Assembly: GCA_964635275.1 (NCBI GenBank)
Contig: CAZWPN010000003.1
Location: 800-64,799, forward strand
Reading direction: 5' to 3'
DNA from: an uncultured Victivallales bacterium
GTDB taxonomy: Bacteria > Verrucomicrobiota > Kiritimatiellia > UBA8416 > CAZWPN01
DNA length: 64,000 nt
Part shown: positions 3,389 through 60,140 of the stretch, one piece after another
Layout: every line of letters starts with the position of its first letter
Position numbering within the stretch: position 1 is the first letter of the stretch
Notes under the pieces: generated by a model
Databases searched by the model: none
What the model was told of the DNA's origin: nothing
The model's input: only the letters and a program-made list of their open reading frames with translations
Translations under genes and position numbers: made by a program

Positions 3389-6300
3389 TCACTTCCTTCG
3401 ACGCGGCGACGAGAGGTACTTGGCCAGGATTCCTGCCGTCCACGAGCGGCTGGGTGGGGCGCTGGTCAGATCTTCAGGGGTTCCGGCGGCAACAACCTCG
3501 CCGCCGCTCTCGCCGCCGTCGGGACCCATGTCAATGATCCAGTCCGCCTCTGCCATCATGTCGAGGTTGTGCTCGATCACGACAACTGAATTGCCGGCGT
3601 CCACCAAGCGATGGAGAACGCGGACGAGTTTCTCGACATCCGCCATGTGCAGACCGATGGTCGGTTCGTCCAGAACGTACAGCGTCCCTCCGTTGCCGGA
3701 ACGATTTGCTCTTCCGGCTTTTGACAGGGAGACGCTCTTTTGTGACCGTTCCCGGGATGGCGGGCTCTGGAGGCTCTGGTGCTCTGGAACGGCGGAACGG
3801 CCAGATCGGCAACGGGCCAGTTCGGTCACGAGTTTGATACGCTGCGCCTCGCCTCCGCTCAGAGTTGGACTTTGTTGCCCCAGTTTCATGTAGCCCAGAC
3901 CAACCTCTTGTAGCAGGCGAAGCGAACTGTGGATCGGGGGCTGTGAGGCAAAGAAGACGGATGCCTCGTCCACGCTCATCGCCAGAACCTCGGCTATTGA
4001 GCGTTCCTTGAAAAGAGCGCCTAGCGTGTCGGGCGTGAATCGCCGTCCTTCGCAGACCTCACAGGGAACGGTAACATCCGGAAGGAAACTCATTTCTATG
4101 CGGCGGACGCCCTGGCCTTCGCATGCGTCGCAACGTCCGCCGGGCACATTGAAGGAGAACCGTGCCGGGCCGTAGCCGCGCAGGCGGGCCTCGGGCGTTT
4201 CCGCGAACAGTCTGCGGATGTCATCCCAGAACCCGACATAAGTTGCGGGACAGGACCGTGGCGTCTTGCCGATCGGAGTCTGGTCGACCTCCATGACACG
4301 GTCGACGCCTTCGTGTCCGAGCAACGCGTCGCATCCGACGACTTGTACGCAGGCCCGTCTGGTTCTGCGGCCTGCGCTACGCGCCTGCCTGTGCAGGGCT
4401 GACAGTGATCCATGCAGGACGTTACGGACCAGTGTGCTTTTTCCGCTACCGCTGACCCCGGTGACACAAACCAGGCGGTTCAGCGGGACGGGGATGCGCA
4501 GTGCCTTTAGGTTATGCATCCGGGCATTCACAACGGTCAGGCATGGCCCCGTAACATGACCCTCCGGAGTCCGTTGGACGGGACGGCGTCCGCCCGTGAG
4601 CGGGTGCTTCATGGGATTCCTGAGGCAGCGGCCCGTGAGCGACTCGGGATGCCGGAGCAGGGTTTGAAGCGATCCCTGGCAGACCACCCGGCCGCCGTCG
4701 ACGCCTGCGCCGGGCCCGAGGTCAACGATATGGTCGGCTCGTCGTATTGTTTCCTCGTCGTGCTCGACGAGTATCACGGTGTTCCCATGGGTCTGGAGTT
4801 CGTGCAGGGTATCCAGCAGCAGACGGTTATCCCTTGGGTGGAGTCCGATGGTGGGCTCATCGAGGATGTAGCATACGCCGCGAAGATTGGATCCCAGTTG
4901 CGATGCCAGACGGATTCGTTGCGCTTCGCCGCCGCTTAGGGTCGGTGCCGCACGATCCAGCGTCAGGTAGGGCAGTCCGACCCTGGAGAGAAACTCGAGG
5001 CGCGAGTGAATCTCCCGGACGATGTCGCGTCCGATTTCGGATTCCCCTGGTTCAAGGGCGAGCCGGTCGAAGTATTTCCGCGCGGCGTCAACCGACAGGG
5101 CCGTGATGTCGGCTATGGATGCCGTCCGGAAGGTGACGGAAAGTGCTTCTTCGCGCAGGCGTCGGCCATGGCATGACGGGCACGCTGTTTCGGCACCCTC
5201 CCACCAAGCGTTCCAGGCGATTTCCTCGCCTGTCTGTTCCTCGTCAAACCCCGGCAAATGGAGGCCGGTTCCGAAGCACTTCTGGCACCATCCGTGCCGG
5301 GAGTTGAACGAGAAGAGGCGCGGATCCATTTCGGGGAAGTTGCGGTGGCATCCAGGGCACGACCGGTGGATGGAGTAGAATGCCGGGGCCGGGCTCAGGC
5401 GGCTGCCCGCGCTGCCTGCGCCGCCATCGGGCACGGCCATTATCGCACCGCGGCCGAATTGCAACGCAGATCCCAATAGTACGCGCAACTCAGCCTCGTA
5501 TTCGGGCGCGGCGCGGACGCGGCCTACCGGCAGCTCGATATTGTGCTCGCGGAAGCGGTCCAGCCGAGGCCATTTCCCGGTCGGAATCATGGCGCCATCC
5601 ACTCGCAAGTGCCGGTAGCCCTTGGACAATGCCCAGGCGGCAAGGTCCGTGTAGAGGCCCTTTCGTGCGACGACAAGCGGCGCCAGCAATGCGACGGGGC
5701 GGTTGAGCCATGTTTTCATCAGACTCGCTAGAATGGCGTCTGGCGTCTGCGGGCGGATGGCTATCCGGCAGTCGGGGCAGTGCTGGATGCCGAGTTTAAC
5801 GAACAGAAGGCGAAGGAAATGGTATATTTCGGTGGTCGTAGCGACGGTGCTCTTACGTCCGCCCCGGCTGGTTCGTTGTTCGATTGCCACGGTTGGGGGG
5901 ATACCGAATATGGCGTCTACGTCTGGCCGGCTCGCCGGCTGGACAAACTGCCGGGCGTAAGCGTTGATCGATTCCAGGTATCGGCGTTGGCCCTCGGCGA
6001 AGAGTATGTCGAATGCCAGTGTGCTTTTCCCGCTGCCGCTGATTCCGGTAATAACGGACAGTGCGTTGAGGGGCAAGGTGACATTGATGTTCTTCAGGTT
6101 GTGCTCGCGGGCGTTATGGACACGGATGACCGGATGCGTTTGCCGGGCCTTCTTCTCTGCTGTATTGCTTCCGTCTCCGACGGAACAGGGCGGGGTGTGC
6201 ATACCACGCAGAGCCGTGCCGGTGTGGCTTTGCGCGCAGGCTGCCACGTCGATAGGAGTACCCTCGCAAACAAGATATCCACCCGCATCGCCACCTTCCG

Positions 6301-9104: not shown

Positions 9105-11204
9105 ATGCATGAGCCAGAGACATCGGTGCGAGTGCTGCTGGTAGAAGACAACCCGGCGGATGCCTTGATAATTCTGGAGTTGCTCAGGGATGGCGGGAAG
9201 GGTGTCTTCAATGTCACCCATGCGGATCGGCTGGATGTCGGGATCAGGGAACTGAATCGGGTTCCCGATGTCGTTCTCCTTGACTTGAATCTCTCGGACA
9301 GCACTGGGATGGAAACGTTCCGGGCGTTTAGGCGGCACGCTGTTCACATGCCGATCATCCTACTGACCCATATGAACGACGAGGCGCTGGCTGCCCAGGC
9401 GCTGAGCGAGGGGGTTCAAGACTATCTGGTGAAGGGTATGTCGGATCCCCGGGTGCTGACCAGGGCGATTCGGTATGCGATCGAGCGCAAGCGCGCGGAG
9501 ATGGCGCTTCAGCAGTACCAGCAGCATCTGGAGGAGATGGTGCTGTGGCGGACGCGGGAGTTGCGACAGGCCAACCAGCATCTGCAGCAGGCGGAGGAAC
9601 AGCACCGTCAGACCGGCGAGGAACTGCGGCAAAGCGAGGGGCGGTTCCGGAACGTTTTCAATCACTCCCCTCTGGGGATCGTTGTTGCTTCCCCGGATTT
9701 CACCATCATCGATGCCAACCCGGCGATGTGTCGTCTTCTGGGCTACTCCCGCGAAGAGATGATTCGTATCGGCGTTGCGGGGATTTCACGGCCGGAAGAG
9801 ATGGTTCGCGATGCCCCCATGCTCCAACACCTCGCCAGGAACGAGATGGAGGTATACCGGACGGAGAAGAGCTATTGCAGGAAGGGCGGCCGTTGGGTGG
9901 ATGGACGAGTGACGGTCTCGGCCGTGCGCAGTGAACATGGGGCTCTTCTCTACTATCTGGCAATGGTGGAGGATGTTACCGATGCAAAACGTGCCGAGGC
10001 GGAGCATCGTCTGGTGGAGACGCGGCGGCATGGTGTGCAGCGAATGGAAAGTCTCTGGGGGCTTGCTGGAGGCGTCGCGCATGATTTCAACAACATACTG
10101 ACCGGGATACTTGGGTACACGGAACTTGCCCTGATGTCTGACCGACTTGACGACGAGGTTCGCGGGCATCTGACAGAGATCATGGCGCAGGGGAAGCGGG
10201 CGGCCGAGCTTGTGTCGCGCATCATGGCGTTCAGCCGGCAGGGGGCTCGGGAGTGTCGGCCGATCCGGTTGGATGCGGTGATTCGTGACGCCGTCCTTCT
10301 GCTGCATGGCGGATTCCCGCCAACAGTAGAAGTGCGCACGCTTCTGAATGAACAATGCGGCGCAGTGATGGCGGATGCAACGCAGATCCAGCAGGTGGTC
10401 ATGAATCTGGGGGCCAATGCACGCGACGCTATTGATGGACGTTCCGGGCTGGTTGAAATCCGCCTGGATGAAGTGACTTTGGGCCAGGAGCATGTGTCAG
10501 CGCTGCCAGACCTGCTTCCGGGGCGGCACGCGCTCATTACGGTTCGCGACTCCGGTTGTGGAATTGAGGCGGATCACTTGGATAGGATTTTCGAGCCGTA
10601 CTTCAGCACCAAGCGGTCGGGTATCGGGACAGGGTTGGGACTGGCGACAGTGCTGGGCGTTGTGCGCAGTCATCATGGCGCCATCGTGGCGGAGAGCGTG
10701 CCTGGCAAAGGAAGCACTTTCAAGGTCTACCTGCCGGTCACCAATGAACCCGTGGTGGGACAGGAATCCGTTTTGGAGCCTGGTACTGCCCCTGAGGGCA
10801 CGGAACGGGTCCTTTTCGTAGATGATCTGCTGTCCGCCGCGCATCTGGCCAAGATTGGCCTGGAACGCCTGGGTTACCGCGTGGACGTGTTTACCCACAG
10901 CCCGGCGGCCTTGCAGGCGTTTCTTTTGCGCCCGGAGTACTACGATGTGGTGATCACCGATCAACTGATGCCTGAACTTAGCGGTGTTGAACTGGCACGG
11001 TGTATTCTCGACGTCCGCGGCGATGTGCCGATCATCCTGTGCACAGGTTACAGCGACCGGTTGAATGGCGACCAAGCCAAGGCTTGCGGTATACGGGAAT
11101 TCCTTTTCAAGCCGGTGCTCACGCGCGACCTTGGCAGGGTCATCCGCAAGGTGCTGGCGAGGAACAAGGTGCTTGCAGGTCGGGCTGAAACTCGGCTACT
11201 CTAG
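9105..11204 (+). CDS. Cytoplasmic hybrid sensor histidine kinase (REC-PAS-HisKA-HATPase_c-REC)
   Basis: N-terminal REC (LLVEDN...DVVLLDL), PAS/PAC, H-box GGVAHDFNNIL, N-box QQVVMNLGANARDA, DSGCGI, FSTK, GTGLGL, C-terminal REC; no TM helix seen. Confidence 0.93.
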   Translation: MHEPETSVRVLLVEDNPADALIILELLRDGGKGVFNVTHADRLDVGIRELNRVPDVVLLDLNLSDSTGMETFRAFRRHAVHMPIILLTHMNDEALAAQALSEGVQDYLVKGMSDPRVLTRAIRYAIERKRAEMALQQYQQHLEEMVLWRTRELRQANQHLQQAEEQHRQTGEELRQSEGRFRNVFNHSPLGIVVASPDFTIIDANPAMCRLLGYSREEMIRIGVAGISRPEEMVRDAPMLQHLARNEMEVYRTEKSYCRKGGRWVDGRVTVSAVRSEHGALLYYLAMVEDVTDAKRAEAEHRLVETRRHGVQRMESLWGLAGGVAHDFNNILTGILGYTELALMSDRLDDEVRGHLTEIMAQGKRAAELVSRIMAFSRQGARECRPIRLDAVIRDAVLLLHGGFPPTVEVRTLLNEQCGAVMADATQIQQVVMNLGANARDAIDGRSGLVEIRLDEVTLGQEHVSALPDLLPGRHALITVRDSGCGIEADHLDRIFEPYFSTKRSGIGTGLGLATVLGVVRSHHGAIVAESVPGKGSTFKVYLPVTNEPVVGQESVLEPGTAPEGTERVLFVDDLLSAAHLAKIGLERLGYRVDVFTHSPAALQAFLLRPEYYDVVITDQLMPELSGVELARCILDVRGDVPIILCTGYSDRLNGDQAKACGIREFLFKPVLTRDLGRVIRKVLARNKVLAGRAETRLL

Positions 11205-51371: not shown

Positions 51372-51728
51372 TTACCGTCCAAAGAGGCGACTGAAGAACC
51401 CACCGCCGCCTTCTTCCCTGTCCATGGCGGATTGGATGCATTCCAGAGCCAGGAACTGGAATCTCTCGGCCCCCATGCTTTGCTTGTACTTACGCGCAGC
51501 CTTGAGTAAACCCGCCTTGCCGGTCTCGACATACCGATTGACTTGTGAGACGTCGCTAGACCGCTTCTGTGCCACGGACAGGATCAAGGGCAAAAATGTC
51601 CGGATCAGACTCTGCTGGGCGCTGAAGTCACCTTTCTTAATCGCCATAACATCGCGCTCGACAGCCCGCGCCTGGGCGGCGGCTACAGGCACGGATTCTG
51701 ATGTGAGGATGTGCAGAGGGATCTTCAA
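51372..51728 (-). CDS. Small protein resembling an isolated sigma-70 region 2, with an amphipathic C-terminal tail
   Basis: KKGDFSAQQSLIRTFLPLILSVAQK...YVETGKAGLLKAARKYKQSMGAERFQFLALECIQSAMDR parallels region 1.2-2 of sigma-70 factors; ends GGGGFFSRLFGR. Start TTG 51728 (GAGG RBS) or ATG 51770. Confidence 0.65.
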   Translation of the reverse strand: MKIPLHILTSESVPVAAAQARAVERDVMAIKKGDFSAQQSLIRTFLPLILSVAQKRSSDVSQVNRYVETGKAGLLKAARKYKQSMGAERFQFLALECIQSAMDREEGGGGFFSRLFGR

Positions 51729-51857
51729 TGTCAGCCTCTTCCTTTTCGATAGCCCCGCAAAATAGACCATCGAATGGTCCCTATGCAAGTGAATAGATTG
51801 GAGGCTCGACATCGCCCATCATATGGCTTACCGTGCGCGGCGGAAGATTTCTCGACA

Positions 51858-54072: not shown

Positions 54073-55686
54073 GTGTCTCTAGTTATGCCGGGCAAACAGG
54101 TTATTCGGTCGACCGTAGCGCTCAGTGCTTGCACTGGCCTGAGTCGCATGCTGGGGTTTGTGCGCGAAATGGCCATGGCGTACTTCTTCGGGACGTCGCT
54201 GGCCAAGTCGGCCTTCGACGTGGCATTCAAGTTACCCAACCTGTTTCGGAGTCTCTTTGGCGAGGGGGCTCTGTCAGCAGCGCTTGTTCCGGTGTTCACG
54301 GAGACGCTCCACAAGGATGGCCGTGAGGAAGCCGGCGTTCTGGCCAGTCGGGTGTTGACTGCGCTGGCTTTTGTTCTCTCCGCAATTGCCGTCCTGACGG
54401 TCGGCGCAATCAGCATCTATCTCTGGTGGGGGGACCCTGGCGTGAAAGCGTCTGCGGTGTTGCCGCTGCTGCGAATCCTGTTCCCGTACATGGTGTTCAT
54501 CTGTCTGGTCGCCGGTTGCATGGCCGTGCTCAATTCGCTGCATTCATTTGTGATGCCGGCGATGTGTCCCGTCATTCTGAACGTCGTTTGGATCGTGACG
54601 CTGGTAGGGGTCAGTCCGCTGGTGACGGCTGATCCGGCCGGACAGGTTGCGGTGGTGGCTTGGGGTATTGTGGTTGCCGGTGCGCTGCAGTTGGCGATTC
54701 TGATCGCCGCAGTCTGCCGGGCTGGTATCCGGCTGCGTGTGCGATCCGACTGGCGAGACCCGAGAATCTTGAGCATCATGAGCCTGATGGGGCCGGCAGC
54801 CCTCGGGATGGGGGTGCACCAGGTCAACGTCATGATTGACGGCATTCTTGCGATGTGGGTGGGCACTTGGGCGCCGGCGGCGCTGACTTACGCGGAACGG
54901 CTCGTCTATCTGCCGCTCGGAGTCTTCGCGACGGCGTTGGGAACGGTCCTTCTTCCGACGTACTCCCGACAAGCGGCGGAAAATCAGCATGACAGGATTG
55001 CCGACACGATGGCCCAGTCGCTTCGCGTGCTCATGCTGGTGATGATGCCTGCGGCTGTTGGGCTGGTGGCGTTGGCGCGGCCGATTGTCGAACTGGTCTT
55101 TGTATGGAAGGGGGGCGCATTCCGCGCCGAGTCGATTGACTACACCACGCGGGCTCTATGGTTCTATGCGCCGGGGTTGGTGGTGTTCAGCGTCGGCAAA
55201 CTTGTGGTACCCGCTTTCTATGCGCTGAAGGACATGCGCACGCCGGTACGTCTGGGTTTGCTCGCCGTGGGGTTGAACCTGGTGATGAATATCGCTTTTG
55301 TTCTCACCTGGCCGGAGGGCTATGGGCACGCGGGGCTTGCGTGCGCCACGGTGTTGGCCAGCATGGTCAACGGCGTCATGTTGGTGAGCGCCTTCCATCG
55401 TGCTGTGGGCTTCCCGGCATGGCGGGCTGTTCTGGCCACGGCCGGCAGGACGCTGGCAGCATCCGTCGTGATGGCCGCGGTTGTGTTAGGCCTGTACCAC
55501 ACACTGCTTGGTCCAGAAGGTGCGCAAGACAGGAGCATGATTCGGTTGTTGGCCACCATCGGCGGGCTGGGTGGGGGCGTGGTTGCCTATGTTCTCATGG
55601 CGCTTGTCCTTTGCCGGCCCGAGATCGCGCTGCTCAGGCAGGGCAGGGGTGGTAAGGGGCGGTCGGGCACTGGCGGAAGCCAGTGA
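54073..55686 (+). CDS. murJ: Lipid II flippase MurJ (MviN)
   Basis: SRMLGFVRE, KLPNLFRSLFGEGALSAALVPV, YAERLVYLPLGVF, PAFYALKDMRTP. Confidence 0.94.
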   Translation: MSLVMPGKQVIRSTVALSACTGLSRMLGFVREMAMAYFFGTSLAKSAFDVAFKLPNLFRSLFGEGALSAALVPVFTETLHKDGREEAGVLASRVLTALAFVLSAIAVLTVGAISIYLWWGDPGVKASAVLPLLRILFPYMVFICLVAGCMAVLNSLHSFVMPAMCPVILNVVWIVTLVGVSPLVTADPAGQVAVVAWGIVVAGALQLAILIAAVCRAGIRLRVRSDWRDPRILSIMSLMGPAALGMGVHQVNVMIDGILAMWVGTWAPAALTYAERLVYLPLGVFATALGTVLLPTYSRQAAENQHDRIADTMAQSLRVLMLVMMPAAVGLVALARPIVELVFVWKGGAFRAESIDYTTRALWFYAPGLVVFSVGKLVVPAFYALKDMRTPVRLGLLAVGLNLVMNIAFVLTWPEGYGHAGLACATVLASMVNGVMLVSAFHRAVGFPAWRAVLATAGRTLAASVVMAAVVLGLYHTLLGPEGAQDRSMIRLLATIGGLGGGVVAYVLMALVLCRPEIALLRQGRGGKGRSGTGGSQ

Positions 55687-55714
55687 CAACAATGTTATGA
55701 TGCGGGGGACGAAT

Positions 55715-58336
55715 ATGAAACGCCAAGCAGATGAGGGACAGCTTCCGAACTTCAGCACGGGATTCACTTCGCTTGACAAGGTGCTCAAGGGCTTGCTTCC
55801 CGGCGACAATGTTGTCTGGCAGGTGGATGACATCGAGGACTACCGTCCGTTTGTGGATCGGTTTGTGGATTACGGCGTGACGACGGATGTTCCACTAGTC
55901 TACTTCCGTTTTGCCAGTCACCGGCAACTGGTGCCCGAGCGACCGGGGGTCATCATCCACAATGTCGAACCAGAAGCGGGGTTCGAGCGGTTTGTCGGTG
56001 AAATCCTCGATGTAATCGAGCAGAACGGGCGTGGTGCGCTGTATGTCTTTGACGGGTTGTCTGAACTCGCAGTGGACTGGTATAGCGACCGCATGCTTGG
56101 TAATTTCTTCATGATTACGTGTCCCTTCCTCTACAAGTTGGACACCATCACATACTTTGCTCTCTTCAAGAAACACCACTCCTTCCACGCTACCGAGAGC
56201 ATTCACCAGACCGCGCAGGTGATTCTGGATGTCTACCGCAACAGGGACCGCCATTACGTGCAGCCGGTGAAAGTGGATCGGCGCTATTCGCCCACAATGT
56301 ATACGCTGCACGTCTGGGAAGACGACGACTCGTTCGTGCCGGTTACGTCGAGTGCGACGATCTCGGATATTCTGGCAGGCACCCCGCAACCGTGGGTGGA
56401 TTTTGCGATACACAGGCCCGGAATATGGCTGAAGACCATTACCCGCGCGCAGAAGACACTTGACGCTGTCCGTATCGGGCGCGGCTCGCTGCACGAGGTG
56501 CAGGAGTCGTTCCAGCGGCTGTTGCGCAGCGCGATTACGCGGGATGAGAAGTTCATGCCCCTGGCAAAGAGGTACTTCGACCTGAACGATCTGATGACGG
56601 TGACGCAGCGGATGATCGGCACGGGGCTCATCGGCGGAAAGTCGCTGGGCATGCTCCTGGCGCGGGCCGCGATCCGGAAGAACGCACCCGGTCTGCATGA
56701 GCGGATGGAGCCGCACGATTCCTTTTTCGTTGGGTCGGACGTCTTCTATACATATCTCGTGCAGAACGGATGCTGGGAGCCACGGCGAAAGGCCAGTGAT
56801 TTGCCGCAACTTCTGGGGCGGAACGAGGAGTCGCACAAACGACTCTTGAGCGGCGGGTTCCCGGATTACATCCGCCGGCAGTTCATGGAAATGCTGGACT
56901 ACTTCGGCCAGTCTCCCATCATCGTACGGTCCAGCAGTCTGCTGGAGGATAGCTACGGGAATGCGTTCTCGGGTAAGTACGATACGGTATTCTGCGCTAA
57001 CCAGGGTAATCCTGAGCAACGGCTGGAGTCGCTGCTTGACGCCGTGCGCACCGTCTATGCCAGTACTCTGAGCCCCGATGCCCTTTCCTACCGTGCGCAA
57101 CGCGGACTCCTGGATCAGGATGAGCAGATGTCGCTGCTGATTCAGCGGGTGTCTGGTGCGCTGTATGGTAAGCACTACTTTCCGGCGATCGGTGGCGTTG
57201 GGTTCTCCTTCAATCCATTCGTGTGGAGCGAAGAGATTGACCCGAAGGCCGGCATGCTCCGCATAGTTTTCGGCCTCGGCACCCGCGCGGTGGACAGGAC
57301 GAGTGACGACTATACGCGACTGATCGCGCTCAATGCTCCGGAGCGCCGGCCGGAGGCTTCGGCCGAGGACGCCCGGCGCTACGCGCAGCGGCAGGTGGAC
57401 CTGCTCGATCTCGAAAGCAACCGGCTCACTTCCAAACCCTTCGCCGGTGTGCTCGAAGGGATTGGCAACAACTTGCCCATGGAGCTTTTTGCGGTACGTG
57501 AGGCATCGGCCTACACCCCGGAAGGTACCTGGTTTCTGACATTTGACCGCCTGATTTCGGACACGCGTTTTGTGGCAGACATGCGCGCCATGCTGGGAAC
57601 CCTTCAGGCGGCGTACGAGTATCCGGTGGATGTGGAGTTCACGGTCAACTTTCTTCTAAAGGGGGACTACCGCATCAACCTCGTCCAGTGCCGACCGTTC
57701 CAGGTCCGGGTGGCCGGCGACGGGGTTCGTTTGGGAGAGTTGGGCAGGATGCGCCGGGAAGACGTGCTCATGGAGAGCGCCGGTCCCATCATCGGGCAAA
57801 GTACGTTGGTGTCGGTGGATCGCCTCGTCTACGTTGTGCCGCGCGTTTACGGCAAACTAAGCGTGAGCGATAGGCACGCGGTCGCCCGTAACATCGGGAA
57901 ACTCAACCGGCTGGCGCTGGCCGAGCATCCGCGGCCGACTGTGATGTTGGCGGGCCCGGGTCGCTGGGCGACGACGACGCCCGCGTTGGGTGTCCCGGTG
58001 AGTTTCGCGGAAATCAACGCGGCCTCGGTCGTCTGCGAGATTGCGGCAATGCACGAGGGGCTTGTTCCGGATGTGTCCCTGGGGACACACTTCTTCAACG
58101 ATCTGGTGGAGATGAACATGCTCTACCTCGCGGTTTCGCCGGAGCAACCGGGGCACGTATTGAACGCGGAGCGAATCGAGGCGCTTCCCAACCGTCTGGC
58201 CGAGTTGTTGCCGGATTCCGCCTCGCTGGCGTCGGTCCTGCACGTTGTGGATACCGGGGGTGTGCCCGGCGGATTACGGATCCGGCTGCACGCCGACAGT
58301 ATAAAACAGAAAGCCGTATGTTACGTTGGGCAGTAG
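55715..58336 (+). CDS. PEP/pyruvate-binding (PPDK_N) domain protein with an N-terminal degenerate RecA/KaiC-like domain
   Basis: STGFTSLDKVLKGLLPGDNVV (no GKT), IGGKSLG, IIVRSSSLLEDSYGNAFSGKY, MSLLIQRVSG, FGLGTRAV, DVEF, VQCRP, GPGRW, SLGTHFF. Start ATG 55715 or 55697. Confidence 0.85.
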   Translation: MKRQADEGQLPNFSTGFTSLDKVLKGLLPGDNVVWQVDDIEDYRPFVDRFVDYGVTTDVPLVYFRFASHRQLVPERPGVIIHNVEPEAGFERFVGEILDVIEQNGRGALYVFDGLSELAVDWYSDRMLGNFFMITCPFLYKLDTITYFALFKKHHSFHATESIHQTAQVILDVYRNRDRHYVQPVKVDRRYSPTMYTLHVWEDDDSFVPVTSSATISDILAGTPQPWVDFAIHRPGIWLKTITRAQKTLDAVRIGRGSLHEVQESFQRLLRSAITRDEKFMPLAKRYFDLNDLMTVTQRMIGTGLIGGKSLGMLLARAAIRKNAPGLHERMEPHDSFFVGSDVFYTYLVQNGCWEPRRKASDLPQLLGRNEESHKRLLSGGFPDYIRRQFMEMLDYFGQSPIIVRSSSLLEDSYGNAFSGKYDTVFCANQGNPEQRLESLLDAVRTVYASTLSPDALSYRAQRGLLDQDEQMSLLIQRVSGALYGKHYFPAIGGVGFSFNPFVWSEEIDPKAGMLRIVFGLGTRAVDRTSDDYTRLIALNAPERRPEASAEDARRYAQRQVDLLDLESNRLTSKPFAGVLEGIGNNLPMELFAVREASAYTPEGTWFLTFDRLISDTRFVADMRAMLGTLQAAYEYPVDVEFTVNFLLKGDYRINLVQCRPFQVRVAGDGVRLGELGRMRREDVLMESAGPIIGQSTLVSVDRLVYVVPRVYGKLSVSDRHAVARNIGKLNRLALAEHPRPTVMLAGPGRWATTTPALGVPVSFAEINAASVVCEIAAMHEGLVPDVSLGTHFFNDLVEMNMLYLAVSPEQPGHVLNAERIEALPNRLAELLPDSASLASVLHVVDTGGVPGGLRIRLHADSIKQKAVCYVGQ

Positions 58337-58474
58337 CTGATAGTTGTATCTTTTGGTACACATGCCATGAAGAGAAACGAGCCGGGGCAGCAGGAAAGGT
58401 TCTTCAATGTCGGCGCTTCCGGGTTTAGAGTGGGTAGCCCCAATATCTTGTGGTCCAAGAAGTCGAAATCGTGA

Positions 58475-58544
58475 AAGTGGGTCGGTTAAGGGTATCCGAG
58501 TAAGTGGGTCGGTTAAGGGGGCGTGTAAGCGGGTCGGTTAAGGG
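58475..58544 (+). repeat. Left-arm tandem motif AAGYGGGTCGGTTAAGGG x3
   Basis: Copies at 58475-58492, 58502-58519 and 58527-58544. Confidence 0.9.
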
Positions 58545-58565
58545 CGAGAGAAGGATGTTGTGGCG

Positions 58566-59315
58566 ATGACGGAACCATTTGGACATGAGAAGTTGATCGT
58601 CTACCAGAAGGGCATGCGTTTCGTTGTCCTCCGGGGGGCGCTGCTGGAGCAACTGCCTCGGCGAGTGGCGGCATGCGATCATCTGGAGCGTGGCGCGGAG
58701 AGCATCCTGCTCAACATCGCTCACGCCAGTAGCACATGGTCTGCGAACGAGCGGATCGTATACTTGGGACATGCCAACGGTTCCGCCTTGGAGTGCGCGG
58801 CCTGCCTGGATGTACTGGCCGCCAAGAACCTGCTGGGCGTGGACGAAGTCCGCCCTGGCAAGAGCATCCTGGCCGAGATCGTCTGCATGCTCATCACGAT
58901 GCGCAAGACGGCCGCCAGCAGGGTTTGTGAAGACCATGCGGGTTATCGGACGAGAATGGGGCGACTATTCGATCATGAGGACCTGGACGTCTATCAGGCC
59001 GCCATCCAGGTTGTCGCCTGGCTTGAGACGTTTTGGGGTGTGGCTTCCTGCAGCGCCGATCTGCGAACGAAGCTCGACAAGTCGACGACCTCGATCGTTC
59101 TCAACATCGCCGAGGGCAATGGTCGCTTTACGGGCCATGATCAGGCGGGGTTCTACGAAACCGCCTACAAGGCCACCATCCAGTCGGCATCGCTTGTCGA
59201 TCTTGCCACCGCAGACGGCGTCGCTGACGTGGCGCGAGTGGAAGCGGGCCGCGAACTGCTCCGCCGGATTGCGGCCATGCTCACTGCACTCTCCAAGGTG
59301 GCAGCACATGCTTGA
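58566..59315 (+). CDS. Tandem (two-domain) four helix bundle protein (TIGR02436 / 23S-IVP / bAvd-like)
   Basis: Domain 1: FGHEKLIVYQK...AESILLNIAHA...SALECAACLD. Domain 2: FDHEDLDVYQ...STTSIVLNIAEGNGR. Start ATG 58566 or GTG 58560. Confidence 0.85.
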   Translation: MTEPFGHEKLIVYQKGMRFVVLRGALLEQLPRRVAACDHLERGAESILLNIAHASSTWSANERIVYLGHANGSALECAACLDVLAAKNLLGVDEVRPGKSILAEIVCMLITMRKTAASRVCEDHAGYRTRMGRLFDHEDLDVYQAAIQVVAWLETFWGVASCSADLRTKLDKSTTSIVLNIAEGNGRFTGHDQAGFYETAYKATIQSASLVDLATADGVADVARVEAGRELLRRIAAMLTALSKVAAHA

Positions 59316-59328
59316 CACACTTCATCGT

Positions 59329-59380
59329 ACCCTTAACCGAACCCTTAACCGCGCCCCTTACTCGGATACCCTTAACCGAC
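59329..59380 (+). repeat. Right-arm tandem motif ACCCTTAACCG x3 (reverse complement of the left-arm core)
   Basis: Copies at 59329-59339, 59341-59351 and 59368-59378. Confidence 0.9.
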
Positions 59381-59462
59381 TCGCTTAATCGACATGACAG
59401 CAGGAGGAGCGACACAACATGTTGGGCTACCCACACCAAACCCGGAAGGACCAGATTCTTCA

Positions 59463-60140
59463 ATGTCAAAACGTACCGACATGACCCTTATGCCCATCCA
59501 TGGCGTTGTCTTCGATATGGATGGGGTTCTTTGTGACTCGGAGCCCTTCATCTGTGAAGCGGCCATGACGATGTTCCTGAGGCAGCATGGCACGCGTGTG
59601 GTTGCGGAAGACTTTGCGCCTTTCGTCGGAGCGGGTGAGAACCGTTACCTGGGCGGGGTGGCGGAGAAATACGGACTGGCGCTCGACCTTGAGAGGGACA
59701 AGAAGGCAACCTACGATATCTACCTGGAAATCATCCGGGGCCGCCTGCAGCCCCTTCCGGGTGTGCGGGAGTTCATACAGCGATGTCGTCAACTTGGTCG
59801 TCGCCTTGCGGTCGCCACCAGCGCGGACCGCGTCAAGATGGACGGGAACCTGAAGGAAATCGGGCTGTCGCCAGAATTGTTCGACACCTGCGTGAACGGC
59901 CTGGAGGTGGCGCGCAAGAAGCCGTTCCCGGACATTTTTCTGGAGGCATGCCGCCGTCTGAACCTGCCGCCGGCGGAGTGCCTGGTGGTGGAGGACGCGA
60001 CAAACGGGATTCGCGCGGGCAAGGCTGCCGGATGCCGGTGTCTTGGACTGACAACCAGTTTCAAAGCCGAGGCGCTCCTGGCGGAGGGGGCGGACTGGAT
60101 CGCGCGCGACCTTGCCGATGTGCCGGATGTCCTGAGGTGA
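59463..60140 (+). CDS. HAD superfamily hydrolase (beta-PGM/CbbY-like phosphatase)
   Basis: FDMDGVLCDSE, VATSA, RKKPFPDIF, VVEDATNGIRAGKAAG; start ATG 59463, 59481 or 59490. Confidence 0.92.
   Translation: MSKRTDMTLMPIHGVVFDMDGVLCDSEPFICEAAMTMFLRQHGTRVVAEDFAPFVGAGENRYLGGVAEKYGLALDLERDKKATYDIYLEIIRGRLQPLPGVREFIQRCRQLGRRLAVATSADRVKMDGNLKEIGLSPELFDTCVNGLEVARKKPFPDIFLEACRRLNLPPAECLVVEDATNGIRAGKAAGCRCLGLTTSFKAEALLAEGADWIARDLADVPDVLR

Follow-up and report, generated by a model that had tools for sequence, protein, structure and literature searches.

A tandem four-helix-bundle gene enclosed in a hairpin as the probable passenger of a non-autonomous ISL3 element in a Victivallales bacterium

Mobile insertion cassettes such as MIC231 of Bacillus cereus have ends of the insertion sequence (IS) type around passenger genes and are moved in trans. 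The Correia/NEMIS elements of Neisseria and the ERIC elements of enterobacteria resemble miniature inverted-repeat transposable elements (MITEs), are cotranscribed with their neighbors, and form hairpins that are cut by RNases. The S23p family, whose members are encoded by intervening sequences of 23S rRNA, has to our knowledge had no known function for about 30 years. Intervening sequences with an open reading frame (ORF) are known from Leptospira, Coxiella, Xanthomonas, and others, and their S23p ORF lies in a stem that is cleaved by RNase III, a cut that removes the ribosome-binding site (PMC4990558). That such ORF-bearing intervening sequences began as mobile elements, with the ORF serving mobility, was proposed by Ralph and McClelland in 1993, as cited in PMC4990558. 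Genes of the same protein family (PF05635) have also been reported, without explanation, between cas genes, e.g., cmr3 and cmr2 (PMC3936711), and the reverse transcriptase of diversity-generating retroelements depends on Avd, a member of the same superfamily (PMC10053308; bioRxiv 10.1101/2023.10.23.563531). Here, we analyzed a stretch of 64,000 nt from an uncultured Victivallales bacterium (contig CAZWPN010000003.1; referred to as the window) that contains, at 58412-59452, a cassette with a single gene for a protein with two four-helix bundles, enclosed by long inverted arms. The cassette is probably a non-autonomous ISL3 element, i.e., a mobile insertion cassette with a hairpin-enclosed four-helix-bundle passenger, which would be moved in trans by a DDE transposase.

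A 12-bp direct repeat bracketing 1044 bp had been noted in the first-pass annotation of the window, and indeed, TTCTTCAATGTC is present in exactly two copies in the 64 kb, at 58400-58411 and 59456-59467, with 1044 bp (58412-59455) between them. With up to one mismatch allowed, two extra sites were found, at 9204 and 51721 (shuffle mean, 0.27). These near-matches, GTCTTCAATGTC (9204-9215) and ATCTTCAATGTC (51721-51732), have no element ends nearby and look like chance occurrences. The duplication lengthens to 15 bp with one mismatch, AGGTTCTTCAATGTC on the left (58397-58411) and AGATTCTTCAATGTC on the right (59453-59467; both unstranded), the final 12 nt being the same in both copies. The true ends, set by homology with other copies, are GGCG at 58412 and GACC at 59452; the start of the element in the copy alignment lies four bases outside the repeat of the first-pass annotation, and aligned copies start with 5'-GG(C/T)(G/C)CTTCCGG and finish with CCGGAAG(G/C)(A/G)CC-3'. 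Since the 15-bp repeat abuts both of these ends, the earlier caveat that the direct repeats sit 4 and 7 nt away from the inverted repeats is removed.

The ends themselves are terminal inverted repeats (TIRs) of the ISL3 type. The left TIR, GGCGCTTCCGGGTTTAGAGTGGGTAGCCCC..., occupies 58412-58456 (plus strand, as do all features below for which no other strand is named) and has GTGGGTA at end positions 19 to 25, and the right TIR occupies 59406-59452, its reverse complement being GGTCCTTCCGGGTTTGGTGTGGGTAGCCC; an autonomous ISL3 partner would be expected to have ends that read GGCGCTTCCGGGTTTAGAGTGGGTAG. When the first 30 nt of the element were compared with 7.3 Gb of plasmid sequence, the sole match (26/30) was in a Desulfolutivibrio plasmid, where it directly adjoins a C-terminal remnant of an ISL3 transposase (PF01610, E = 5.9e-14; NF033550). 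Annotated ISL3 ends from Solidesulfovibrio (locus L208; L-numbers denote fetched loci, about 200) and from ISEc53 share the pattern GGnnCTTCC...GTGGG, and the end layout of the window element is common to the ISL3 ends in L208, L209, L132/L153, and L212/L213. The last two are identical, autonomous 1584-bp ISL3 copies in one genome that encode a 417-aa transposase of the same clade as that of L132/L153. They are bounded by the left inverted repeat GGTTCGTCAGCAGAATTCGTGGGTAAG and the right inverted repeat GCCTCGTCAACAGAATTCGCGGGTAAA (given as the reverse complement) and by 8-bp target duplications (GTTTTCAG, and AATATTA plus one base), and GTGGGTA is found at end positions 19 to 25 in the window element, L045, and L212 alike. 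A 417-aa ISL3 transposase is also encoded on L132 and L153, metagenome contigs that bear the arm motif of the cassettes as well, and the end of this ISL3 element, ...GCAGAATCTGTGGGTAGAT, has a 19-nt identity to the TIR of a sister cassette subfamily (L045/L016/L021). In both of these loci (L132, 4559-4699; L153, 11822-11999), the transposase frame of the autonomous element enters the right terminal repeat and has its stop codon inside the repeat, and in L132, a gene-less arm hairpin with a T-run behind it precedes the element at a distance of about 30 nt. As partners of the window element, L132, L153, and L212 to L214 were rejected, since their ends match the sister L045 type instead; the ISL3 transposases of L210 and L211, which belong to the L132 clade, have no clear window-like ends. 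A tblastn search with two ISL3 transposases found nothing in the 64-kb window.

A target duplication of 8 bp is a trait of the ISL3 family and was borne out here on L212/L213. The first-pass annotation had asked whether other copies of the cassette have duplications of their own, and this is the case: exact 8-bp AT-rich duplications abut both ends without any offset in six relatives, either cassettes or deletion derivatives, namely, L163 (AAAATTGA), L171 (ATACTTAT), L045 (AGAGTTGT), L030 (AAAATAAA), L081 (AAAAAAGA), and L014 (ACAAATAG). With mismatched flank pairs as the control, the scan found none (0/390). The targets of the cassettes are AT rich and often follow a T-run. Because of the ISL3 TIRs and the 8-bp AT-rich duplications in relatives, mobility can be explained by a DDE transposase that acts in trans on DNA, and since the sole ORF encodes a PF05635 protein and no PF01610 transposase is present, the element is non-autonomous. 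The former view of the cassette as a selfish mobile element thus stands insofar as it is discrete, mobile, and flanked by a target duplication and does not itself encode a transposase, integrase, or reverse transcriptase; that it represents a distinct class, defined or moved by its RNA stem, does not agree with the ISL3-type TIRs and the 8-bp AT-rich duplications.

The only gene inside the cassette (58566-59315) encodes 249 aa and matches PF05635 and TIGR02436, as annotated before, and can now be refined to a tandem of two S23p/Avd-like domains that are 30% identical to one another. Accordingly, the AlphaFold model (pLDDT, 87.9) has two four-helix bundles, and the closest solved structures are the S23p proteins 2GSC and 2RLD (TM-score of 0.83 to 0.88, target normalized). 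The link drawn earlier, at the level of the fold, from the PF05635 protein to rRNA intervening sequences and Avd is correct (PMC4990558; PMC10053308). A catalytic domain was not recognized in domain, PADLOC, PHROGs, or structure searches, with 0 matches in PADLOC and PHROGs, and the protein had no tblastn match in plasmids. The domain scan covered three window ORFs, i.e., the cassette gene and its two flanking genes, and found neither a transposase nor a reverse transcriptase domain in them. Copies of the gene at different sites have a dN/dS of 0.12 to 0.16, which argues that the ORF is under purifying selection (dN/dS of about 0.13) and that the passenger is functional.

The cassette is one of many. 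The 249-aa product has more than 1,000 relatives among public proteins, of which about 120 are 69 to 91% identical to it, and many of the relatives are on contigs of only ~1 kb, as expected of repeated elements, which break assemblies. When one genome was scanned per species, 527 loci were detected; nearly all of the best 80 are in metagenome-assembled genomes of Kiritimatiellia, Lentisphaerae, and Verrucomicrobia, and up to five tandem four-helix-bundle loci are present per metagenome-assembled genome. The two closest relatives (91 and 90% protein identity) have gene contexts unrelated to that of the window and to each other, with the arms conserved. Window-type ends (88 to 96% identical) adjoin at least 14 different flanking sequences, often right after T-runs, and closely related copies of the cassette, with 86 to 90% nucleotide identity, are present at many other sites. 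At L001, the upstream gene (928 aa) is unrelated to the upstream gene of the window despite its similar length; this copy lies inside a second, unrelated inverted repeat of CACGGAT units (3780-3847 and 4877-4940), GAGAACCACGGATAGACACGGATGAACACGGAT ... ATCCGTGTTTATCCGTGGTTCTC.

Internal-deletion derivatives (L171, L163, L133, L091, L045, and L059) have lost 150, 231, 315, 585, or 682 nt of the ORF and kept both arms. Searches with a 21-nt arm motif yielded more than 120 loci from metagenomes; only about 25 of these have any ORF, and at least 31 among 120 such loci are gene-less tight hairpins. Other rearrangements were seen in single loci. The left end and arm of L158 (316-450), 95% identical to the window type, stop after about 135 nt, where unrelated sequence with an ORF in antisense follows, probably another insertion into the cassette. 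Compared to L097 (1304-1588), L135 (240-1430) is longer by an insertion of ~0.9 to 1.2 kb, in which an arm-type hairpin (GGTTAAG.../...CTTAACC), an ORF in antisense, and 90 bp duplicated from the flank were found. L110, L118, L123, L134, and L206 formed a separate repeat family in an all-versus-all comparison, with matches of ~100 to 250 nt about 1,555 nt apart.

The orientation of the gene-bearing copies is biased. Both neighbors are in sense to the gene in 41 loci, and both are on the opposite strand in only 3, whereas random insertion would give equal numbers; this points to a strand-specific role, possibly in the transcript. Promoter and terminator predictions over 58200-59700, which covers the cassette and its surroundings including the gap to the upstream gene, found none, which points in the same direction. 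The simplest reading would be that only sense insertions express the gene by read-through and stay under selection and that the others decay into gene-less hairpins.

The passenger gene is enclosed by complementary arms far longer than the TIRs. Arms of ~120 nt with an outer inverted repeat, a perfect 24-bp stretch, and further inner units had been described before and were recovered both by complementarity and by RNA folding. The outer inverted repeat (58416-58440/59424-59448) is complementary at 23/25 positions, and pairing goes on, imperfectly, to about 58456/59406. The core consists of 24 uninterrupted Watson-Crick pairs (58481-58504/59357-59380). The unit GGTTAAGGG is present three times per strand, always in the arms of the cassette and nowhere else in the 64 kb (6 versus 0.15 expected). 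The left inner arm (58470-58544) is G rich and has three direct repeats of ~25 nt (CGTGAAAGTGGGTCGGTTAAGGG), or, more exactly, three 23-nt repeats at a spacing of 27 and 25 nt, and the C-rich right inner arm (59329-59391) has three inverted copies of the arm unit (CCCTTAACC...). If folded as RNA, the arms are predicted to form 119 interarm pairs from 58409 to 58564, 8 of which are G-U, in a stem that runs from the ends of the element up to the ORF (-176.8 kcal/mol for the arms alone); the same stem was recovered when the whole 1.1 kb was folded. In the predicted fold, the region of the ribosome-binding site (AAGGA) and the start of the gene (58545-58565) pairs with the stop-codon region, 58545-58564 with 59310-59327. 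Since RNA folding of 350-nt flanks over-extends stems, it was dropped for setting boundaries. An Rfam search gave no match in the window and none in 20 related loci.

The G-U wobbles named in the first-pass annotation (AAGTGG against TCGCTT, and T58444 against G59421) are present, as the pairs T58478-G59383, G58480-T59381, and T58444-G59421. Their interpretation as a mark of selection on an RNA duplex is not borne out. Isolated mismatches in the arms of 60 loci comprise 46 G-U, 33 A-C, and 81 others (p = 0.18); under looser criteria, the numbers were 135 G-U and 101 A-C (p = 0.03). The five alignable window-type copies have 5 double changes in 114 pairs, a value reached by 69 of 500 shuffles, and the covariation across homologous cassettes is, therefore, not above that of the shuffled control. 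Taken together, the sequences give no significant sign of selection on the RNA duplex. The two G-U pairs at 58478 and 58480 do not vary among the five window-type copies, which is a hint rather than a test.

These data bear on a new class of element that would move via its folded transcript, with the Avd-like protein recruiting a reverse transcriptase encoded elsewhere and target duplications of variable length. The structural relation of the family to Avd (PMC10053308; bioRxiv 10.1101/2023.10.23.563531), the strong sense-orientation bias, the two G-U pairs common to all five copies, and the range of duplication lengths (8, 11, and 12/15 bp, with direct repeats of 17 to 20 bp in other cassette subfamilies) would fit such an element. 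However, its ends are ISL3 terminal repeats, the commonest duplication is exactly 8 bp, the derivatives are internal deletions with both ends intact and not 5' truncations, neither the G-U count (46 versus 33) nor the covariation is significant, and the domain scan of the cassette gene and the two flanking genes was negative. We therefore regard transcript-borne mobility as very unlikely.

Inverted arms are present at most tandem four-helix-bundle loci. We compared the 330 nt 5' of each tandem ORF with the reverse complement of the 330 nt 3' of it. The best local inverted-repeat score had a median of 63, compared to a mean of 19.6 for mock genes 1.7 kb away, none of which exceeded 33. This mock-gene maximum was surpassed by 67 of 78 loci, including loci with only 35 to 45% protein identity and arms unlike those of the window. 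Tandem modules were found in the arms of 51 of 72 loci versus 5 of 60 controls, with 12 nt as the commonest period and near-multiples of 12 to 14 nt as the others, and the 5' arm was G rich (38% G, 15% C) in 55 of 60 loci. In the left flanks (260 nt upstream, 72 loci), the sequences of the modules vary by subfamily, e.g., GACGAAGTGTGG, GATTAAGATTAC, GGATCGGGACAA, and GTGTACGAGTAG, with a period of ~12 to 14 nt and a (T/G/C)(A/G)AAG-like core in common. A period of 12 nt is close to one turn of an A-form duplex, which would line the units up along the same side of an RNA helix. Long arrays of arm units occur as well: the left arm of L012 (2700-2990) has 16 GGTTAAGGG units in 8.6 copies of a 28-nt period, compared to 4 units in its right arm, and a 27-nt unit is repeated 9 times in the left flank of L017. 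Arm identity between copies is 87 to 90%, compared to only ~70% at their synonymous sites, and 34 of 44 pairs of the central helix are invariant among five copies. Since the arms are more conserved than synonymous sites and most helix pairs do not vary, constraint appears to act on the arm sequence as such and not on pairing alone.

If this arrangement were the primary selfish or functional unit, resembling an rRNA intervening sequence outside rRNA, it would spread or be maintained in a way of its own, the protein would act on the repeats of the arms, and the ISL3 ends would be only one of several vehicles. The enclosure of the gene even by unrelated arms, the tandem modules, the G-rich 5' arms, and the conservation of the arms above synonymous sites argue for this explanation, as does the fact that 23S intervening sequences hold the same family in an RNase III-cut stem and were proposed to be mobile with the ORF serving mobility (PMC4990558). 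Four loci (L050, L053, L055, and L056) have a different TIR, TAGAGGTCTGAGCAAACCGCCACCCC, with duplications of ~5 bp (CATTG, CATTC, and ATCGA), about 230 to 250 nt upstream and 165 to 205 nt downstream of the ORF, which indicates that hairpin plus gene are not tied to ISL3. A comparison of these ends (TAGAGGTCTGAGCAAACC...) with plasmids gave chance-level matches only, and no transposon family was assigned. However, this explanation offers no mechanism and no boundary apart from transposon ends, all clean boundaries with duplications being of the transposon type; the protein has no recognizable catalytic domain, and neither a G-U excess nor covariation is significant. We thus consider it unlikely that hairpin and gene, and not the ISL3 element, are the primary unit. 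A broader proposal, which we put forward as possible, if doubtful, is that S23p/Avd-like genes and their hairpins form a self-contained module in which the ~12-nt units, aligned along one side of the duplex, would be bound by the protein and excision at the RNA level would make insertion near-harmless; such a module would ride several transposon shells (ISL3 and at least one other), and ORF-bearing 23S intervening sequences would be the case in which it landed in rRNA.

For the non-autonomous ISL3 element that we favor, the following mechanism can be proposed. An ISL3 DDE transposase encoded elsewhere in the genome would bind the outer ~30 to 45 bp of the ends and insert the element into AT-rich DNA. 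In the place of the transposase gene, the element carries its passenger module, the tandem S23p/Avd-like gene inside ~100-bp arms of short G-rich units. The lack of a predicted promoter and the sense position in a run of genes on the same strand make read-through transcription probable. In such a transcript, the arms would form a duplex of ~120 bp that buries the ribosome-binding site and the start codon of the gene and that would be a substrate for RNase III, as in the 23S rRNA intervening sequences with the same kind of gene. The protein would most likely bind the repeated units of the arms. The hairpins that lack a gene result from internal deletion.

The cassette lies between two genes of its own strand. 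Upstream, a protein with a PPDK_N (PEP/pyruvate-binding) domain is encoded at 55571-58336, and downstream, a HAD-family hydrolase is encoded at 59463-60140, the element being inserted just 5' of its start codon; a further neighbor is a 1285-aa ORF on the opposite strand. The G+C content is 59.2% for the cassette and 59.7% for the window overall. The right copy of the duplication holds the working HAD start codon (ATG at 59463), a start that is supported by relatives: L006 also begins with ATGTCA, and a 225-aa relative (P0122) begins at the same ATG. The left copy holds the duplicated start codon (ATG at 58407) and sits after the original ribosome-binding site of the HAD gene, GGAAAGG, which is now upstream of the element, and the right end of the cassette puts GGAAGGA 12 nt 5' of the HAD ATG. 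The duplicated ATG, which follows the original ribosome-binding site, opens a spurious ORF of 44 codons, MSALPGLEWVAP... (58407-58541), whose frame extends into the left arm and may undergo incidental translation.

An empty allele of this site would have one copy of AG(G/A)TTCTTCAATGTC and read ...CAGGAAAGGTTCTTCAATGTCAAAACG. A relative with 97% identity in the HAD protein (L005) has the cassette at the same site, and one with 89% identity (L006) has no cassette but another upstream gene. Because the former is filled and the upstream gene of the latter differs, neither is a true empty site, and the all-versus-all comparison of the ~200 fetched loci gave no filled/empty pair for the cassette family. 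An immobile fossil that is now used by the host, e.g., for processing by RNase III or for translational insulation between the upstream gene and the HAD gene, would be in line with the filled site in L005 and the lack of an empty allele, with the atypical duplication, one position of which has diverged, and with GGAAGGA, which could replace the displaced ribosome-binding site. However, the ends and the ORF are intact, copies with 86 to 90% identity are present at many other sites, and there is no direct evidence of a function for the host. A fossil would also be compatible with an origin by ISL3 transposition, since it concerns the present state of the locus only; in our view, it is highly improbable.

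Several findings weigh against the assignment of the cassette to ISL3 and its mobilization in trans. The Desulfolutivibrio match has, as a DNA match by itself, an E value of only 1, and it adjoins a remnant in an unrelated phylum. An autonomous ISL3 element with window-type ends was not found among the loci examined. Both ISL3-type ends are present in only a minority of the 78 tandem four-helix-bundle loci, with several having one, and the L050 group described above has other ends and duplications of ~5 bp. The window duplication is 12 bp if exact and 15 bp with one mismatch, not 8 bp, that of L075 is 11 bp, and no clean duplication is present in L001 or L092. The check for an empty site failed, too, the pattern GGAAAGGTTNTTCAATGTNAAAACG having 0 matches in metagenome contigs. 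Finally, read-through, folding, and RNase III cleavage, as well as binding of the protein to the arms, we only infer. The shared ends and the 8-bp duplications in the relatives nevertheless make a non-autonomous ISL3 element the probable identity of the cassette.

If so, a seemingly unmovable cassette becomes a case of ordinary mobilization in trans by an ISL3 transposase, and the S23p family travels as a selected, hairpin-wrapped passenger of genuine transposons in bacteria of the PVC superphylum (Kiritimatiellia, Lentisphaerae, and Verrucomicrobia). The arm repeats would then be the likely ligand of S23p-type proteins, and the origin of ORF-bearing intervening sequences from mobile elements (Ralph and McClelland, 1993, as cited in PMC4990558) would become directly testable. 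The self-contained module, if real, would provide a testable origin for the ORF-bearing 23S intervening sequences and a first function for S23p. Cassettes and gene-less hairpins break metagenome assemblies, and the cassettes may account for PF05635 genes inside operons, e.g., between cmr3 and cmr2 (PMC3936711). None of the searchable open-access papers that use the database names of the protein family describes PF05635 genes in a hairpin between transposon ends. The question worth pursuing is the role of the four-helix-bundle protein and the repeat-built hairpin and the reason why they travel together.

How does the cassette compare with known systems? With 23S intervening sequences it shares a PF05635 ORF in the loop of a long stem of flanking repeats, a ribosome-binding site in or next to the stem, and short tandem repeats upstream of the ORF. 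In contrast to these, it lies between protein-coding genes and not in helix 25 or 45 of the rRNA, has no Rfam match, encodes a two-domain fusion protein, and is bounded by transposon ends and a target duplication; its stem is ~120 bp long compared to 28 bp in the Coxiella intervening sequence (PMC4990558). Avd has the four-helix-bundle fold of the same superfamily (PMC10053308), the best solved-structure matches of the cassette protein being 2GSC and 2RLD, but is a single domain, whereas the cassette protein is a tandem. A diversity-generating retroelement was considered and rejected, since the three window ORFs scanned have no reverse transcriptase domain and 58300-59600 has no long pair of direct repeats of the template/variable kind. 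Correia/NEMIS and ERIC elements are likewise inverted-repeat elements between genes with expected cotranscription and hairpins as RNase substrates, but unlike the cassette, they are 100 to 160 bp long, gene free, and from another IS family and another host phylum.

The closest resemblance is to the ISL3 family and to mobile insertion cassettes and MITEs. With the former, the cassette shares the end pattern GGnnCTTCC...GTGGGTA (positions 19 to 25), the 8-bp duplications in relatives, and the AT-rich targets, but it has no gene for a DDE transposase, and the duplication in the window is 12/15 bp. With mobile insertion cassettes and MITEs, it shares TIRs of a known IS, a target duplication, the lack of a transposase, many unrelated sites, and short gene-less derivatives, and, with the mobile insertion cassettes, a passenger gene where the transposase would be. 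What sets it apart from these is that the passenger is a hairpin-enclosed tandem four-helix-bundle gene, that the inverted complementarity extends far past the TIRs up to the ORF, and that the gene-bearing copies are nearly always in sense to their neighbors. We thus assign the cassette to a known kind of mobile element, of which it is a variant whose passenger is unusual, and not to a new class.

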